From sequence record MZ868638.1: 64,000 nucleotides of DNA; one strand, 5' to 3'. Source of the DNA: Escherichia phage vB_EcoM-pEK20. The translations under genes were made by a program, and so were the position numbers. Below, piece after piece: positions 3,975 to 60,671 of this stretch; the stretch's first letter is position 1; each line of letters opens with the position of its first letter. The notes beneath the pieces were generated by a model. The model saw only the letters and a list, made by a program, of their open reading frames with translations, was not told the origin of the DNA and did not search any database.

Positions 3975-4433
3975 ATGACTATCAATTCAGACGTTTTTAT
4001 CCGCCGCAATAAACTCCGTCGAATCTTTGAAACGGAGTTCCGCAAAATAAATGCCAGTATAAAAGATGCTGCAAAGTCTCTTGGACTACCGGGCTTTCAT
4101 ATCAAGTATTCTCAACATCTCTTAGATCGTGCCATCCAGAGAGAAATAGATGAGAATTACGTTTTTGAATTATTTCATAAAGTAAAAAATCATGTTAAAG
4201 AAGTTGCAGAATTTTTATCAATGCCGGCACGTCCAGATGTTGATGAAGATTTTGTCGAAGGTGTCGAATATCGCCCAGGCCGTTTAGAAATAACTGATGG
4301 AAATCTTTGGTTAGGACTTACAGTTTGTCGCGAAAATCCAGCATTCAAAATGAAGACTCTTCAATGCAGAATGGCTATTATTAACAATAAACGACTACCA
4401 GGAAAAGCTTCTAAAGCAGTGATTAAAATCTAG
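3975..4433 (+). CDS. regB: RegB-like sequence-specific endoribonuclease
   Basis: 152 aa; resembles T4 RegB as recalled and lies between denV and tk. Confidence 0.55.
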   Translation: MTINSDVFIRRNKLRRIFETEFRKINASIKDAAKSLGLPGFHIKYSQHLLDRAIQREIDENYVFELFHKVKNHVKEVAEFLSMPARPDVDEDFVEGVEYRPGRLEITDGNLWLGLTVCRENPAFKMKTLQCRMAIINNKRLPGKASKAVIKI

Positions 4434-7199: not shown

Positions 7200-7502
7200 A
7201 TGGCCTTAAGAGCGATAGCTGTCATAGCGATGCTGGGGTTTTTTGCAGCAACAACTCCTATCGTTGGTACTGCACATATCGACCCATATTTTGATAACTT
7301 TATGGAATCAGGGATTAAAAACGTATATACTTTGTTTGAAATTCAAAATGTCGAGAATTCTGAAAAATTCTATAAGTATATGGCAAAGCATTACAAAAAT
7401 AGCCCCTGTGATGATGCATTTGAATGTCATGAACAAGGCATAAAAACCGCCAGACAATTTGCCGAGTTCATGAAAATAAAATTAGAGCCTACATCTATCT
7501 AA
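7200..7502 (+). CDS. rI: Lysis inhibition regulator RI (antiholin-binding)
   Basis: Signal-anchor plus NxDPxFDxFMESGIxxVYxLFE motif, matches T4 RI as recalled. Confidence 0.8.
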   Translation: MALRAIAVIAMLGFFAATTPIVGTAHIDPYFDNFMESGIKNVYTLFEIQNVENSEKFYKYMAKHYKNSPCDDAFECHEQGIKTARQFAEFMKIKLEPTSI

Positions 7503-12818: not shown

Positions 12819-13814
12819 ATGAGCATTACATCTGATGCGGTAAAACATGAAATTAACGGTTTATGTGCTTCACAGATTAAAGTGTGGTTTAAAGACCATA
12901 ATGATCGCAGAGCACTTAATTATGAGCAAATTGCTATCCAAGTTCATCAATTACTGACTAGTAAATTTGATTTTCATATGCCGTCTGAAATTTATACTAA
13001 TCTACCACGAGCGCTTATTAAAGCGTGTAAAGGTTACGGAAAATCAATGGCCGATGGAATCTTCAGCGCGCTGAATAAACTTAACGTTCTGTCGATGATT
13101 AACTCTAACAACATCCTGCGTAATCTAGGACGTACTGATTTGTTCGGCCGTGAACAGTGTAAAATGCCTTTGAAATGGATTGTTGCTCATCTTAACGAGA
13201 ACCAAACACGTTTTATGGCCGTATCAGCACGCTTACAAATGGGTCTAGATCGTCAGATGAACTTTAAAACTCATCCACGTTATTCAGGTTCAACAGACTT
13301 TTATAAATGTGAGCTTCAAAAGGTTGCAGGTAAAACTGTCTTAGTAGTTCGTGTAACGTTTGAAGGACGACGTCAAGGATATTTTGACCTAATCGGCTCT
13401 GGACTTAAACATTGTGGATTTATTGACGAAGTTGATATCAAGCGAGACAGCATTGGATACCGTATTGGATATGTTTGTACTCTTAAAGAAGAGATTTCAG
13501 GACCAGCACCAGGACTAAAAGACGTTAGATATAAAGACGAACTCGTTGAAGAAATAAAAGAAGTTGAATATGATATCAACCAAGAAGATGCTCTTAAAGA
13601 CCTTATTGATGAACTAAACCAAGACGTTATTCCGGTTCAGAAATTTGAATCAAAACATGCTGAGCAAATCAAATACTTTGAAGCTTTGATTAACGAACTT
13701 AATGTAACTATTCAACAGACTGATGATGAAATCTCACGATTAGCAGGCTTAAACGGTAAAAATAAAACAGAACGAGCTAATCTTATCCAGGTAGTAAAAC
13801 TTCTTAAGGAATGA
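12819..13814 (+). CDS. Hypothetical protein with C-terminal coiled coil
   Basis: Charged heptad-like C-terminal ~60 aa. Confidence 0.35.
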   Translation: MSITSDAVKHEINGLCASQIKVWFKDHNDRRALNYEQIAIQVHQLLTSKFDFHMPSEIYTNLPRALIKACKGYGKSMADGIFSALNKLNVLSMINSNNILRNLGRTDLFGREQCKMPLKWIVAHLNENQTRFMAVSARLQMGLDRQMNFKTHPRYSGSTDFYKCELQKVAGKTVLVVRVTFEGRRQGYFDLIGSGLKHCGFIDEVDIKRDSIGYRIGYVCTLKEEISGPAPGLKDVRYKDELVEEIKEVEYDINQEDALKDLIDELNQDVIPVQKFESKHAEQIKYFEALINELNVTIQQTDDEISRLAGLNGKNKTERANLIQVVKLLKE

Positions 13815-13869
13815 TGTACAACCAAGGATGGTTGGAGTATAATAAATTTTTCAACATGAGGAATATAAA

Positions 13870-14805
13870 ATGGCTTCTATTACACGTAGAGAACTTATCA
13901 AAGAATTTACCTCGAACGCATATACCCCAGGACCTAATCCTATCCGTATGCCTGTAAAGACTCCTGAAGAGATTGAGGAAATCTGTTCATATTATGGGAT
14001 TAATTCTCGTAAGTTTACTCAATTTGAATGCGTTACTAACACACCCGTTAAAGAGTTCATTAAAAATGGTGAGTTCAGCCGTTTATTAGCCAAACAGAAA
14101 CTTCGTAATTTTTGTATTGGCGGTGAAGGACAATATTTCGCTAAGCAGTTCAGGAATAACCTTAACAATCTGATGGCCATTGCTTCTCGTATTCGTCCTC
14201 AAGCAATTAACATGAAACATTTGAAATATACTTACGATAAGTTAGAAATCATGGTTATCAGTGAGAACGAGTTCACTCTTACGTATAAACCTAAGAATGA
14301 TAACGTTGCTCGTGTATTCCACCAAGCGTTGGAAGTTTTAGGTGATAATATCCACCAGATTAAAGCAATTTATTCTCGTGAGCTTAATATTATCAACCCT
14401 ATCAAGAATAAGGGCCATATCGCTATCCAGGCTCGTGTATCTGTTGGTAAAAAGGTTCCTGCGCCATGGTGGCACAAAGACTCTGAATACTATCAAAATC
14501 TTAAAAAGGAAAATGCAACGTTCGAAGCGTCAATTACTACAACCCCAATTGGCAATGCTGAAGTTCAAGGTGCATATTTTACTGCTCCATCTATATACAC
14601 TTCACCGTCGACTAAACTGGAAATCTCTAACGGTCTTCTTCCTGCCGAAGATTACTATTATAATCAAATCAAAGCCACTGTGGACCAACTGTCTGTTGAA
14701 CTTGACAAAGCACAAGCTAAGCTTCGTGATGCTCAACAAGTAGTTACCAAGCTCCAGTTGCAGTACTCTAAACTTTTTAACGCAATGAATGCATTAAAAT
14801 CATAA
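13870..14805 (+). CDS. Hypothetical protein with C-terminal coiled coil
   Basis: Same architecture as neighbours. Confidence 0.35.
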   Translation: MASITRRELIKEFTSNAYTPGPNPIRMPVKTPEEIEEICSYYGINSRKFTQFECVTNTPVKEFIKNGEFSRLLAKQKLRNFCIGGEGQYFAKQFRNNLNNLMAIASRIRPQAINMKHLKYTYDKLEIMVISENEFTLTYKPKNDNVARVFHQALEVLGDNIHQIKAIYSRELNIINPIKNKGHIAIQARVSVGKKVPAPWWHKDSEYYQNLKKENATFEASITTTPIGNAEVQGAYFTAPSIYTSPSTKLEISNGLLPAEDYYYNQIKATVDQLSVELDKAQAKLRDAQQVVTKLQLQYSKLFNAMNALKS

Positions 14806-14809
14806 ATCA

Positions 14810-14839
14810 GTTTACAACCAAGGATGGTTGGAGTATAAT
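14810..14839 (+). promoter_or_regulatory. T4-type early promoter cassette (repeated)
   Basis: GTTTAC 14810-14815, TATAAT 14834-14839; about 48 nt identical to 57277-57324. Confidence 0.45.
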
Positions 14840-14867
14840 CTTTCTATCTTAACGAGAGGAAAATATT

Positions 14868-15812
14868 ATGACACGTTCACATTACATTGATTATTTTGCA
14901 GGTCTTATCGCTAACGTTCATGCCCAACGTGCTTCTGGTTCATTAGGATTTGATGTTCCACACCGAGTTGTAGTAAGTGGTATTCTTCGCGATTTTGGTA
15001 CATACACAGGCCAAGAAAATCATATCTGTAAAGATACTCAGAATGCATATTCTCATTCATTAGGGACACTGCTTCAATGGTTCAAACGTTCTCGTTTATT
15101 ATCTTCTACTGTAGCTCGCGATAACATTAAAAACTTTATGAAGCCGAGCTTTATTAAATCTGTGACATCTAAAACCGATTTGGTTGAATTCACTATTGTT
15201 AATGATGTTAAAAAGACTCATTTGGCTGATTGGTTATCTACCATTCCTGAAACTAAATTTGCTGATAAATTTGCTTGTGAATTCAATAACCAAGTGAATA
15301 TGCTTTTTAAACATTCTCGTAAATTATTCACAGGCGGCGATGATCGTACAAATAAAGTTCATGTTAAAGATTGGGTTACTGCAGTATTCAAACCAACCGG
15401 TAATGGTAACGCATCATTATCAATTGATATCCAGGTTCCTTATTACTACTCACGTAATCTCGGTACCATGAAAGCCGAAGAAATTAATAAGCACAACAAA
15501 ACCATTCGTTCGCTGTCTTATAAACTTCGCATGATGTTAAGAATCATGGACGTGGTAGAAATGTATGATGAAACCGAAGATAATGGTTCAATGTTATACA
15601 GTTCTCGCATTCAAATTAAGTTGAAGAACCCTAACGAGTATAAGCCTATTAAAGAGCCTAAAGCAGAAAAAGTTGATAACTTAAGAGAAGAACGCGAATA
15701 TCTCAAATCTCGTCTGAAAGAAGTCGAAGCCCAGATTGCAGAACAAACTAAATCGTTAAAAGCTCTGAATGCGAAAGCGGATGGCTTACGAAATGCCATT
15801 GAGGTGTTATAA
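14868..15812 (+). CDS. Hypothetical protein with C-terminal coiled coil
   Basis: Same architecture as neighbours. Confidence 0.35.
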   Translation: MTRSHYIDYFAGLIANVHAQRASGSLGFDVPHRVVVSGILRDFGTYTGQENHICKDTQNAYSHSLGTLLQWFKRSRLLSSTVARDNIKNFMKPSFIKSVTSKTDLVEFTIVNDVKKTHLADWLSTIPETKFADKFACEFNNQVNMLFKHSRKLFTGGDDRTNKVHVKDWVTAVFKPTGNGNASLSIDIQVPYYYSRNLGTMKAEEINKHNKTIRSLSYKLRMMLRIMDVVEMYDETEDNGSMLYSSRIQIKLKNPNEYKPIKEPKAEKVDNLREEREYLKSRLKEVEAQIAEQTKSLKALNAKADGLRNAIEVL

Positions 15813-56598: not shown

Positions 56599-57276
56599 AT
56601 GAGCACTGATGTTATTATAGATTTTGAAACATTCGGCAATACATCAAAAGCGGCTGTTATTGACCTTGCGGTTATTGCATATAATTCCGACCCTGAAGTT
56701 GTTGAATCATTTGAAGAACTTGTTCAACGAGGTAAGCGAATTAAATTTAATTTAGCTTCTCAGAAAGGGAAGCGAGTTTTCGCTAAATCCACTATGAAAT
56801 GGTGGAAAGAACAATCGGCTGAAGCACGTAAAAACTTGGCTCCGTCTGAAGACGATGTCACTACGCTTGAAGGCATTAAAATCTTTTTAGACTATTGCCG
56901 AGCTAATAAAGTTGACCAATGGAAATCACAGATGTGGTGTCGTGGTATGAGCTTTGACTTCCCGATATTGGTCGATTTGATTCGTGACCTCTATCGTGAT
57001 GAAGGTGTTCCTGAACCAGAGATTGATACTGATAAATTAGAACCGGTTAAATTCTGGGCTCAACGTGATATTCGTACGGCAATCGAAGCTTACTCGTTGA
57101 CACGAGGATTAAGTATGTGTCCATTACCGATGGGTACGCTAAAAGGATTCGTTGCCCATGATAGTATTCATGATTGTGCTAAAGATATTTTGATGTTAAA
57201 ATATGCTCAGCGTTATGCGCTTGGTCTTGAAGATGTCCCTGAGAATCCTGACCCGTTAAGTGTAAAACAGCGATAA
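56599..57276 (+). CDS. dexA: Exonuclease A (DEDD 3'-5' exonuclease)
   Basis: IIDFETFG exo motif I and HDSIHDCAKD motif; position after dda. Confidence 0.8.
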   Translation: MSTDVIIDFETFGNTSKAAVIDLAVIAYNSDPEVVESFEELVQRGKRIKFNLASQKGKRVFAKSTMKWWKEQSAEARKNLAPSEDDVTTLEGIKIFLDYCRANKVDQWKSQMWCRGMSFDFPILVDLIRDLYRDEGVPEPEIDTDKLEPVKFWAQRDIRTAIEAYSLTRGLSMCPLPMGTLKGFVAHDSIHDCAKDILMLKYAQRYALGLEDVPENPDPLSVKQR

Positions 57277-57281
57277 AATCA

Positions 57282-57311
57282 GTTTACAACCAAGGATGGT
57301 TGGAGTATAAT
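57282..57311 (+). promoter_or_regulatory. T4-type early promoter cassette (repeated)
   Basis: GTTTAC 57282-57287, TATAAT 57306-57311; about 48 nt identical to 14805-14852. Confidence 0.45.
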
Positions 57312-57341
57312 CTTTCTATCTTAACCAAACGGGAAACAATT

Positions 57342-57836
57342 ATGAATATCAATACTACGTCTACTTACATCCTGAAAGACGAAAAACAAATCAACTGGTA
57401 CGGTGCTTCAGTGCGAGCTTATGAAAAGTTTTGTGAAATTTTAGGTGCCACTCAAGGTAATAGTTTCACTATTGTTAACTTCATTAAACAAGTTGAAGGC
57501 CCTTGGTTATTCTTAGAAATTAAAAATTCATACGGTACAATTTCTACTACTGCCATCCCAAGCACCGACTTTGAACTGTTGATTGAAGAAGCACCTGTTA
57601 AAGATGGTCTCCACTTTGATATGGATATCGTTTGTATGTACGGTACTCTGATTAAGCCTATTGAGCCTACTGATTTATTGTGTAAATATGTTTCAATTCG
57701 ACGCCCATTCGATGGTCCAGTAAATGGATGGGTAACTGACCAGTGGATTGAAGATGGGGTTGAACTTCTGAACGTTGTTCATGCCGGTGATTTTAGTGTG
57801 GTTCCACGTAGTGCAGTAGTTAATATTCTAAATTAA
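57342..57836 (+). CDS. Paralog family member A (C-terminal DQWIEDGVELLNVVHAGDFSVV motif)
   Basis: One of three tandem paralogs. Confidence 0.4.
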   Translation: MNINTTSTYILKDEKQINWYGASVRAYEKFCEILGATQGNSFTIVNFIKQVEGPWLFLEIKNSYGTISTTAIPSTDFELLIEEAPVKDGLHFDMDIVCMYGTLIKPIEPTDLLCKYVSIRRPFDGPVNGWVTDQWIEDGVELLNVVHAGDFSVVPRSAVVNILN

Positions 57837-57897
57837 TGTTGTACATCCAAGGATGGATGGAGTATAATGAATTCAATTTAACAAAGAGAGAAAAATT

Positions 57898-58353
57898 ATG
57901 ATTACTATTGGTGAAATTAAGCGTGTATCAACTGCATCCCGGTCTAAAGCCGCAGGTCGTCTGGTTGAAGTGGTAGGACTTCGCACAAATGGCATGGGAC
58001 GCATTAAAGAAGTTAAAGTTCGAATCATTCCTAGTTTTGGACGCCAGGATACTCAGCACGCTTACGTAAGTCCTAAATTCTTGGAAACTCCTGTGAGCGC
58101 TCATTTTGCTTCTACTGAACCTAATGCACAGTTCAAATGGGCCTTGTGTAAAGGTGTTGAATTCCAGACTGATAAAGAATTTGACTTCATCGATGAATAC
58201 GGTTATCCAAGCAAAACTGATACTATGTGTGGCTTCATTAGTGACCAATGGGTTGAAGATGGTGAAAAGTTATACAATATCGTATTCTTAGGTGACTTCC
58301 GAGTTGTTAAAGAATCTGAAATCACTCGTTATGTGTCTCCTCGTAAAGCTTAA
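57898..58353 (+). CDS. Paralog family member B (ISDQWVEDGEKLYNIVFLGDFRVV)
   Basis: Tandem paralog. Confidence 0.4.
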   Translation: MITIGEIKRVSTASRSKAAGRLVEVVGLRTNGMGRIKEVKVRIIPSFGRQDTQHAYVSPKFLETPVSAHFASTEPNAQFKWALCKGVEFQTDKEFDFIDEYGYPSKTDTMCGFISDQWVEDGEKLYNIVFLGDFRVVKESEITRYVSPRKA

Positions 58354-58362
58354 GGAATTATT

Positions 58363-58782
58363 ATGAATATTGTAAATCTCTCTACAGGTGATTACGTATA
58401 TGTATCTGTTGCTTCTCGCTCTAAAGTTGCCGGGAAGTTGGTTGAAGTTCTTTCTGTGAGTGATCCGGTTTTTGGTCGTAACCAAGTTAAAGTTCGTGAC
58501 GCCGATGGTAACATTGGTTACGTTAAAAGCCAATTTATTGAACCAGAAGAAAAAGCGTTCAAATGGAAACTGGGCAGATCAGTTTTAGTTGTAAAAGACT
58601 ACGAGTTCACCATTGCCGCTGCGACAGATGGAACACCGTGGACAACGAATCAAGTTGCTGGTTTTATTTCGGACCAATGGGTAGAAGATGGTGTTAAGCT
58701 TTATAACATTGTTTTCGCTGGGCAGTTCATGGTAGTTCCTGAGTTCCAAATCAAAAAATATTGTCCAGCATCTTTTGCATAA
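58363..58782 (+). CDS. Paralog family member C (ISDQWVEDGVKLYNIVFAGQFMVV)
   Basis: Tandem paralog. Confidence 0.4.
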   Translation: MNIVNLSTGDYVYVSVASRSKVAGKLVEVLSVSDPVFGRNQVKVRDADGNIGYVKSQFIEPEEKAFKWKLGRSVLVVKDYEFTIAAATDGTPWTTNQVAGFISDQWVEDGVKLYNIVFAGQFMVVPEFQIKKYCPASFA

Positions 58783-58841
58783 AGTTGTTTACTTCTCCTC
58801 CGGTTTTGATATTATAACCATATCAACCAGAGGAGAATAAT

Positions 58842-59366
58842 ATGTTAGTTTACCGCGTAGAACGTAGTTTTTGTACTCAACGTGAATCATTACCAGGAAT
58901 TGCTATCGAAGATGGTAAAGCCGTCAGAATTTGGGAAACCTCTTGGAATAAAGAACCTCGTTCGCCGTATGGTTGGTCGGGCACCGACAACTCTGAAGAA
59001 ACATGGGAGTTCCTTGATAAGCATGGAATACTCTCAGGTAACTTCTACCATCACGGCGACAACTATAATGTCCCTAATCGTCCTACAGTAAATGAAGACA
59101 AACTCCTTGAACAAAATATCTTAAGATACTATAGAATTGAGCACACATTTGAATTGAGTGAAGATTGGGCTCAAGGGTTCTATTTTGGATTTGAAAGTGT
59201 TGACGCGGTTTATGCATGGTTTGATGACCAGGTGGATGTTGAACTCTTGAAAGCTAAAGGATACTACATCGCGGTCTATGAAGCACCTGATTTCATCCTC
59301 GGAAGTTGTCAATTAATGTTTAGACGTTCATTGGCAGAACAAGTTGATTTTATTTTGCTAAAATGA
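58842..59366 (+). CDS. Hypothetical protein
   Basis: ORF; promoter GTTTAC 58787-58792 upstream. Confidence 0.35.
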   Translation: MLVYRVERSFCTQRESLPGIAIEDGKAVRIWETSWNKEPRSPYGWSGTDNSEETWEFLDKHGILSGNFYHHGDNYNVPNRPTVNEDKLLEQNILRYYRIEHTFELSEDWAQGFYFGFESVDAVYAWFDDQVDVELLKAKGYYIAVYEAPDFILGSCQLMFRRSLAEQVDFILLK

Positions 59367-59423
59367 TGTACAACAACTATGGTCTATGATACTATAGACC
59401 TATCAAAACAAGAGGAGAATATT

Positions 59424-59651
59424 ATGAAACGTCAAATCATTAAAAACGTAACTACTGATTCAAACATCGATGAGTTTGAAGATGTTCTGTTTAATCCTGA
59501 TTTAGTTGTTGTACAGAAAAACTGGACCGAATTTTTATGCTACACTGAAGTGGTTTACGTTTACGAAAAACTCGGCGATGAAATGCCTATCTATGGTATC
59601 TTCCGTGAAATCACTGAAAACGGTACAACTTATTGGAAGGAAACTTACTAA
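59424..59651 (+). CDS. Hypothetical protein
   Basis: Internal ATG; 5' part of ORF 59379-59651 is a promoter/stem-loop cassette. Confidence 0.35.
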
Positions 59652-60061
59652 TGGCTAATAAATTCCGCGTTAACTCATGGTACCAATTTATAGATAAACG
59701 TGCCCAAGAAGAGTTTATTAAAGACCACACTGATAATGGGATTTATGCACGACGTCTTGGCATGGAACCATTTAAAGTATTAGATGTTGACCATCTTGGT
59801 CGTCCTACTAAAATTGTGACATCTACTGGCACGGTTGGATACGCAACAGGCGGTGATATCCTTGATGAAAACTTTATCTGGCTCTCCACGAATGAAGCAG
59901 AGTTCTTTGACGAAGTTGAAAATCCATATCAAGCGTCCGAAGAGCAAGATTCTGGTGAACTTGAAGAATTGTCTGAATTTCCTGTGATGACGATTACTAT
60001 CGAAAATAATGACCAGGCATGGTCTTTGTATCAAATGTTGAAAGCACATTTTAAGGAATAA
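59651..60061 (+). CDS. Hypothetical acidic protein
   Basis: ATG overlapping upstream stop (TAATG). Confidence 0.35.
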
Positions 60062-60245: not shown

Positions 60246-60671
60246 ATGGCTTTTAAAGGTTTTGAAGTTGGTAAGAAATATCGTATTATCAAAGGACAGG
60301 AAGATAATTTCTTGAGAATTCTTAATACGACTGGTAAACGTCTTAATACTAATCTGCATACTACTTTATTGTCCAAAGATTTTATTGTGGAAGAGATGAT
60401 TGGTTACGGCGTTTCTGTGATTGCTGTAGAAGCCGTAGGCGATTATGGCCGAACTATTCATAGTATGCAAGGTGATATTCTGCTTTATGGTGCAGAATTT
60501 AAATTCTTTGAAGAAGTTCCGGAACCAGATACAGCTGTCGATTTCAAAAAAGGCTCTATAGAATTTGTTGATGGTTCGGTGATCGTATCAGGCGATGTGG
60601 TCATTACAGTTAAAAGTGAACAAGGGCGTTTGGCTGCAATTGATGCACTTCAGAAAATTAAATTTAAATAA
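60246..60671 (+). CDS. Hypothetical protein
   Basis: ORF only. Confidence 0.35.
   Translation: MAFKGFEVGKKYRIIKGQEDNFLRILNTTGKRLNTNLHTTLLSKDFIVEEMIGYGVSVIAVEAVGDYGRTIHSMQGDILLYGAEFKFFEEVPEPDTAVDFKKGSIEFVDGSVIVSGDVVITVKSEQGRLAAIDALQKIKFK

Follow-up and report, generated by a model that had tools for sequence, protein, structure and literature searches.

The probable motB.1–motB–motB-like early-gene cluster of Escherichia phage vB_EcoM-pEK20 and the C-terminal domain common to its three predicted two-barrel proteins

Three consecutive open reading frames (ORFs), here called P1, P2 and P3, follow dexA in a 64,000-nucleotide stretch of Escherichia phage vB_EcoM-pEK20 (MZ868638.1), which was analyzed as a whole and is referred to below as the window. 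The trio very probably represents the motB.1–motB–motB-like early-gene cluster of Mosigvirus, situated in the non-essential dexA-to-gene-39 region and encoding two-barrel proteins with a common C-terminal domain (CTD). From dexA to the start of cef (56599–59400), nucleotide identity to many Mosigvirus (RB69/JS09-type T4-like) genomes was 95–99.8%; judged by sequence, the window is a Mosigvirus (RB69/JS09-like) genome. Gene order here is dda–dexA–P1–P2–P3–motB.2–cef–goF–39.2–ORF005c–39, and was compared with that of T4 and RB3. The order annotated in JS09/RB69 is dda, dexA, motB.1, motB, "MotB-like / similar to motB" (RB69ORF010c), motB.2, cef, goF, 39.2, RB69ORF005c and gene 39. P1–P3 thereby occupy the dexA–cef interval typical of the MotB family in Tevenvirinae genomes.

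The pattern is real but ordinary. These are known MotB-family genes and their detection is a rediscovery, because the family has already been described, including the common CTD, the differing N-terminal domains (NTDs) and the extra copy in RB69 (PMC7827196, PMC12152347). Finding a published paralog family of T4-like phages again adds little in itself. The interest of the MotB family is moderate and lies in its role as a host-chromatin (H-NS) modulator encoded by phages. Three outcomes could be useful to those working on MotB: the family-typical MotB.1 carries a complete MotB CTD that is cut off in the T4 reference annotation; the second copy of MotB, an old one, is under purifying selection; and genes of the cluster move as promoter-flanked cassettes.

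The original prediction, made from the letters of the window, held that three tandem ORFs beside dexA end in one shared motif. This motif, DQW[IV]EDG.[KE]L.N[IV]V..G.F.VV, was searched as a regular expression through the entire 64 kb translated in six frames. Exactly three matches were returned, one near each ORF end, and both the ORF coordinates and the position directly downstream of dexA were confirmed (Table 1). BLASTP related P1 to P2 (E=4e-10) and to P3 (E=3e-11), and P2 to P3 at E=2e-29 (43% identity over 145 residues), the latter pair being alignable over their full length. Within the window, similarity of P1 to P2 and P3 spans only 29–36 residues, rising to 72 against the Pfam profile and 94 against T4 MotB. 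Since the alignment between P1 and T4 MotB extends across 94 C-terminal residues (E=1e-11), the common region is a whole domain and not merely a short motif. All three proteins passed the gathering score of Pfam MotB (PF17613, 25 bits): P1 with 34.6 bits (CTD only, residues 88–159), P2 with 124.7 bits (E=4.3e-36 over residues 1–146) and P3 with 81.8 bits. Similarity beyond the motif, the lack of which was to count against the prediction, thus spans the whole CTD in both the profile and the T4 MotB alignments. The CTD core (F/W)(I/V)(S/T)DQW(I/V)EDG..L.N.V is present in all three, and its columns are invariant across 29 and 38 homologs.

Table 1. Coordinates of the cluster, its motif copies, putative promoters and context genes (window positions unless stated), with dN/dS values by the Nei–Gojobori method.
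Feature	Coordinates	Strand	dN/dS	Description
P1, motB.1-type gene	57342–57836	+	0.12	164 aa; predicted GoF/MotB.1 'LSm-like' NTD barrel, low-confidence linker (residues 88–103), MotB-type CTD barrel (residues ~109–164)
Motif copy DQWIEDGVELLNVVHAGDFSVV in P1	57738–57803	+		Strands 2–4 of predicted CTD barrel
P2, MotB ortholog	57898–58353	+	0.24	151 aa; predicted strongly basic KOW-like NTD barrel, linker, MotB CTD barrel
P2 NTD	57898–58083		0.24	
P2 linker			0.40	Highest of any domain
P2 CTD			0.10	
Motif copy DQWVEDGEKLYNIVFLGDFRVV in P2	58243–58308	+		Regular-expression match
P3, second full-length MotB paralog ('MotB-like', = RB69ORF010c)	58363–58782	+	0.15	139 aa; two predicted barrels, shorter linker, near-neutral NTD
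Motif copy DQWVEDGVKLYNIVFAGQFMVV in P3	58672–58737	+		Regular-expression match
Early (sigma-70-like, T4-type) promoter cassette before P1	57283–57311	+		TTTACA-N17-TATAAT; consensus match, putative
Second early-promoter cassette before P2	57840–57868	+		TGTACA-N17-TATAAT; consensus match, putative
dexA	56599–57276		0.04	Directly upstream of P1
motB.2			0.11	
cef			0.03	
goF (context)	59651–60061	+	0.15	74% identity to T4 GoF; phrog_622; NTD homologous to P1 NTD
RB69ORF005c-like gene (context)	60246–60671	+		GoF/MotB.1 NTD family; phrog_622 (E=7e-22); weak match to phrog_2333 (E=1.3e-3)
T4 motB.1 extra-G site	NC_000866 record 7253–7332; extracted locus 4142–4360	minus		

Comparison with T4 and the PHROG database assigned each gene. 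P2 and P3 both fell in phrog_1671 ("MotB-like transcriptional regulator"), and P1 in phrog_2333 (E=3.5e-81). P2 is the ortholog of T4 MotB (47% identity, E=2e-41), of the same length class and at the same dexA–cef position, with a KOW-like NTD bearing the SRSKAAG motif and a CTD containing DQWVEDG.KLYN.VF; its ortholog is named MotB in RB69 and JS09. P3 shares this architecture (39% identity to MotB) but is a second full-length copy that T4 lacks, with a shorter inter-domain linker. P1 is 37% identical to T4 MotB.1 (E=4e-26, residues 3–136), likewise lies directly upstream of motB, and its ortholog is labelled 'motB.1' in JS09. It differs from the T4 reference protein in its length of 164 aa, an extra segment of ~20 residues (HFDMDIVCMYGTLIKPIE) and a complete MotB-type CTD. 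Patterson-West et al. 2021 (PMC7827196) set out exactly this pattern in their 'categories 1–4', with alternative NTDs attached to a conserved CTD. There, MotB comprises a KOW-like NTD and the conserved CTD, MotB.1 has the same CTD with a different NTD, motB and motB.1 probably arose by duplication, and RB69 carries two motB genes, one motB.1 and a 29-aa CTD peptide.

All three proteins are predicted to consist of two small SH3-like β-barrels, of which the CTD barrel is common. In the AlphaFold2 models of P1 and P3 (mean predicted local distance difference test score, pLDDT, 78.7 and 84.1), the two barrels are joined by a linker. The modeled segment DQW(I/V)EDG-x-(K/E)L-x-N(I/V)V forms strands 2–3 and the turn of the CTD barrel; in the P3 model, the full motif runs from the end of strand 2 through the turn and strands 3 and 4. 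The NTDs of P2 and P3 are KOW-like barrels with the SRSK-AG signature, within the MotB-family pattern G-x-x-x-x-VS-x-x-SRSK-x-AG-x-x-VEV. The P1 NTD barrel is unrelated to these in sequence. Instead, P1-type NTDs matched the GoF/RB69ORF005c NTDs by hhalign (probability 92.6%, E=4.7e-7, 79 columns), and the N-terminal half of P1 is predicted to form the bent five-stranded antiparallel β-sheet of the LSm-like fold. Kim et al. 2025 (PMC12152347) group the NTDs of MotB.1, GoF and Frd.2 in an LSm-like-fold family, to which P1 is linked by its identity to T4 MotB.1 and by the homologous NTDs of GoF and RB69ORF005c encoded in the window. The earlier claim of diversified N-terminal parts therefore stands in part: the P1 NTD does differ from those of P2 and P3, but as another domain family and not by gradual diversification, and P2 and P3 align throughout. 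The CTD model resembles an SH3/Tudor-type barrel rather than specifically the OB-fold of PMC7827196. Net charge of the NTD barrel is +8 in P2 (isoelectric point 11.3), +5 in T4 MotB and +1 in P3; P1 is acidic throughout (–9 for the whole protein). The CTDs carry –3 (P1), –4 (P2) and –1 (P3).

The CTD family is small. A profile of the three CTDs matched only 30 proteins among 1.84 billion representatives, and the matches read were small MotB/MotB.1-type proteins, save one unrelated repeat protein (P0183). Long multi-repeat matches of 570–2408 aa appear spurious, P0183 being the one of these that was read. Proteins of the wider family place a very conserved MotB.1-type CTD (72–88% identity to the P1 CTD) after either a KOW-like module or one or two LSm-like modules. 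A PDB sequence search with P1 and P2 gave no relatives, the sole result being a chance match (0.039) to an SH3 domain.

A repeated promoter cassette had been predicted before each of the first two ORFs, and was found at 57283 and 57840. The 29-bp pattern T[GT]TACA[AT]CCAAGGATGG[AT]TGGAGTATAAT occurs in four near-identical copies in the window and in none of 100 shuffles; the further copies lie at 13815–13843 and 14811–14839. The copies before P1 and P2 scored 11/12 and 10/12 as promoters, and the P1-side cassette also precedes the P1 ortholog in 10 related genomes. P3 starts 9 nt past the P2 stop, lacks its own promoter and presumably shares a transcript with P2. P1 and P2 would thus each be driven by a putative T4-type early promoter, and P3 would ride on the P2 transcript. 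Both promoter spacers are palindromic, AACCA-AGGA-TGGTT before P1 (57288–57303) and ATCCA-AGGA-TGGAT before P2 (57845–57860), with a paired A/T to T/A change between them, and a partial palindrome is seen in the spacer of the T4 motB promoter as well (CTCTTGG-GA-CCAGAG). As a conserved structure this palindrome was set aside, there being one covarying pair only and a variant, GGACGG, that breaks a pair; nothing is claimed for it.

T4 MotB offers a guide to function. It is an early protein whose binding to DNA, modified or not, is independent of sequence; it was co-purified with H-NS and StpA and alters H-NS footprints. Its over-expression is toxic and up-regulates H-NS-repressed host genes, and MotB doubles burst size (PMC6070864, PMC7827196). 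By analogy, P2 would be made early, bind DNA tightly without sequence specificity and alter H-NS/StpA–DNA complexes. Such action would de-repress H-NS-silenced DNA and raise burst size modestly. Charge suggests that DNA binding would reside mainly in the basic NTD barrel. The CTD is more likely a protein-contact or oligomerization module, because its barrel is acidic to neutral in all three proteins. On the same grounds P3, with its neutral NTD, and P1, acidic throughout and of RNA-chaperone-like fold, may be sub-functionalized partners rather than redundant copies.

Several points weigh against this account. In the published assignment the CTD is an OB-fold that may do the DNA binding, so that either domain could bind (PMC7827196), and net charge is the sole basis for regarding the CTD as a protein-contact module. 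The measured biochemistry is that of T4 MotB and not of the Mosigvirus copies, P3-type proteins or full-length MotB.1, and a T4 ΔmotB.1 mutant showed no laboratory phenotype (PMC12152347). In the P1 model, the linker (residues 88–103) has pLDDT below 50 and the predicted template modeling score is only 0.47, making the relative domain arrangement unreliable. Promoter activity and P2–P3 co-transcription were deduced from sequence.

The invariant acidic CTD barrel could serve as a common docking or hetero-oligomerization module that brings interchangeable NTD barrels to one host target, for example H-NS/StpA–DNA filaments. The cluster would then be a combinatorial toolkit swapped as promoter-flanked cassettes, an idea to which we assign a low probability. 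In P2 the interchangeable barrel would be a basic KOW-type DNA binder and in P3 a neutral variant, and P1 and longer proteins related to it would contribute at least one acidic LSm-like module.

Another unlikely reading makes P1, and possibly all of the family, post-transcriptional regulators that target RNA, the role put forward for the LSm-like GoF family; the CTD would then be an RNA- or ribosome-associated barrel of KOW or eIF5A type. MotB.1 was inactive in a gene-41 5' untranslated region reporter assay in which GoF(D25Y) acted, a result that may come from a construct of the 119-aa truncated form. The net charge of P1 is unfavorable for nucleic-acid binding, and small-barrel fold matches carry little functional information.

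Copy-number variation among relatives, which the original prediction had suggested looking for, is present. An IMG/VR locus search with P2 gave three loci, and annotated phage records were used for the survey: tblastn with the P1 CTD found 1672 places in 780 records, i.e. one to three CTD copies per genome. Three copies occur in Mosigviruses and some Tequatroviruses (RB3, Aplg8), two in T4 and most Tequatroviruses, and one in the T2 record listed and in Klebsiella phages. RB3 and Aplg8 keep the motB.1–motB–motB-like order, with motB.2 placed before motB.1, which makes the duplication an old one. Three Mosigviruses (RPN187, VIPECOMC06 and PNJ-9) have no P1. In all three, P1 promoter sequence lies left of the junction and the P2 5' leader right of it; as the junction falls inside the promoter cassette, P1 and one promoter copy (557 bp) were lost by recombination between the two promoter repeats. 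P1 with one promoter copy would thus behave as a cassette. To the published description (PMC7827196) this adds that motB.1 loss maps to promoter repeats.

This arrangement recalls the PeSL model of modular shuffling (PMC2839356, PMC4122927), in that repeated sigma-70-like early promoters (TTTACA-N17-TATAAT) lie in a hyperplastic region exactly at insertion/deletion junctions between close relatives. A scan found no terminator-like hairpin beside either cassette, the sole palindrome being the 5-bp one inside the promoter spacer; the cassettes are therefore not PeSLs in the strict sense. PNJ-9 also lacks motB.2, and its junction (1858–1940 of the extracted locus) joins the –35 region of the motB.2 promoter to the –10 region of the cef promoter, the window counterparts being 58783–58841 and 59366–59424. 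In T4 and RB3, motB.2 with a homologous promoter lies directly after dexA and not after motB-like. Because its position differs between T4/RB3 and Mosigvirus, the promoter-plus-motB.2 module has moved between genera. Three metagenome proteins (P0148, P0151 and P0149) fuse a P2-type or T4-MotB-type N part to a P3-type C part, with crossovers at FKW(K/A)L or DQWVEDG, which is consistent with either unequal recombination between paralogs or assembly chimeras on short contigs. In LF82-33 (1339–1896 of the locus), the annotation gives the motB ortholog as a 111-aa truncated ORF, after which comes a gap of ~220 nt, and an in-frame stop is met; this is possibly a frameshift or pseudogene.

Selection was assessed on orthologs from 14 related genomes, with the ratio of nonsynonymous to synonymous substitution rates (dN/dS) computed on 10–15 Mosigvirus genomes per gene. 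All three genes are under purifying selection: gene averages, which are insensitive to a few positively selected sites, were 0.12–0.24, and no domain exceeded 0.40. The P1 NTD (dN/dS 0.11, dS 0.11) ranks with the better-conserved portions of the trio. Mean dS was 0.19–0.36 in P1–P3 versus about 0.08 in dexA and motB.2, at 0.5–0.6 in the NTD and linker of P2 and reaching 0.63 in the P2 NTD. Since dS rises along with dN, the divergence points to imported, mosaic alleles under purifying selection rather than positive selection on point mutations. For P2, the variation indicates allele replacement confined to the 5' half of motB. When P2 was compared with PNJ-9 and three further genomes, some Mosigvirus P2 alleles were seen to carry linker insertions of 8–14 residues.

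These values bear on whether P3 and/or P1 could be dispensable recent duplicates that drift to loss without distinct function. The absence of P1 from three Mosigviruses, its frameshifted state in the RB69 reference record, the collapse of two copies into one in the metagenome P2-N/P3-C fusions and the non-essential nature of the region in T4 all point that way. Yet P3 is intact in 15 of 15 genomes at a dN/dS of 0.15, and P1 in 10 of 11 with the gene in full (RB69 being the exception) at 0.12. The gene order kept in RB3 and Aplg8 likewise argues for a duplication that is old and maintained. Decay is therefore a very improbable account overall, and P3 as a decaying duplicate was rejected on conservation and dN/dS.

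The original prediction had suggested a target-recognition arms race. On such a reading the paralogs would be diversifying specificity factors (for example, anti-defense or host-factor-targeting) whose NTDs, under positive selection, track variable host targets. The three genes are indeed far more variable among Mosigviruses (protein identity 78–98%) than dexA, motB.2 and cef (97–100%). They are polymorphic in presence and copy number, the number and type of N-terminal modules joined to the CTD vary within the family, and the locus belongs to those early, non-essential regions in which T4-like phages house genes for host takeover. Against this, dN/dS stays low in every gene and domain, the excess divergence is matched by excess dS indicative of allele import rather than adaptive point substitution, and the P1 NTD is among the conserved parts. 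The characterized member, T4 MotB, binds DNA irrespective of its sequence and perturbs H-NS, and is not a specificity determinant (PMC6070864, PMC7827196). The arms-race claim was not upheld and such a role is highly unlikely. A receptor-binding or specificity tip was likewise rejected for the motif, as the proteins are small, driven by early promoters and related to an early DNA-binding protein, and are not virion parts.

Two reference sequences carry frame-disrupted versions of motB.1. In the T4 reference, the 119-aa ORF stops inside the DQWI motif through one extra G (ATTGGAAGATGG instead of ATTGAAGATGG), and the next frame encodes EDGVELLNVVHAGEYSVVPRSAVVAILN, the rest of a MotB-type CTD. 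The extra G is found only in AF158101/NC_000866 and is missing from the eleven other T4 and T4T records listed, RB55 and RB59; native T4 MotB.1 is therefore probably 143 aa long. This full-length 143-aa form is widespread (P0011, 256 contigs). Published work on MotB.1 cites NC_000866 coordinates and a 13.8-kDa protein. In RB69 (AY303349), motB.1 is split by two +1 frameshifts within ~60 nt (1290–1445 of the locus), whereas ten other Mosigvirus sequences carry an intact 164-aa ORF. The C-terminal remnant of this frameshifted motB.1 is the 29-aa ORF annotated as RB69ORF012c, which PMC7827196 lists as its 'category 3 peptide', a point that adds to the published description.

The cassette also precedes two of three consecutive ORFs of 311–331 aa at 12819–15812 (phrog_2257, phrog_2351 and phrog_1435), a possible further group of modules flanked by promoters. 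A stretch of ~50 nt, 5' leader included, is common to the cassette copies at 14811 and 57283.

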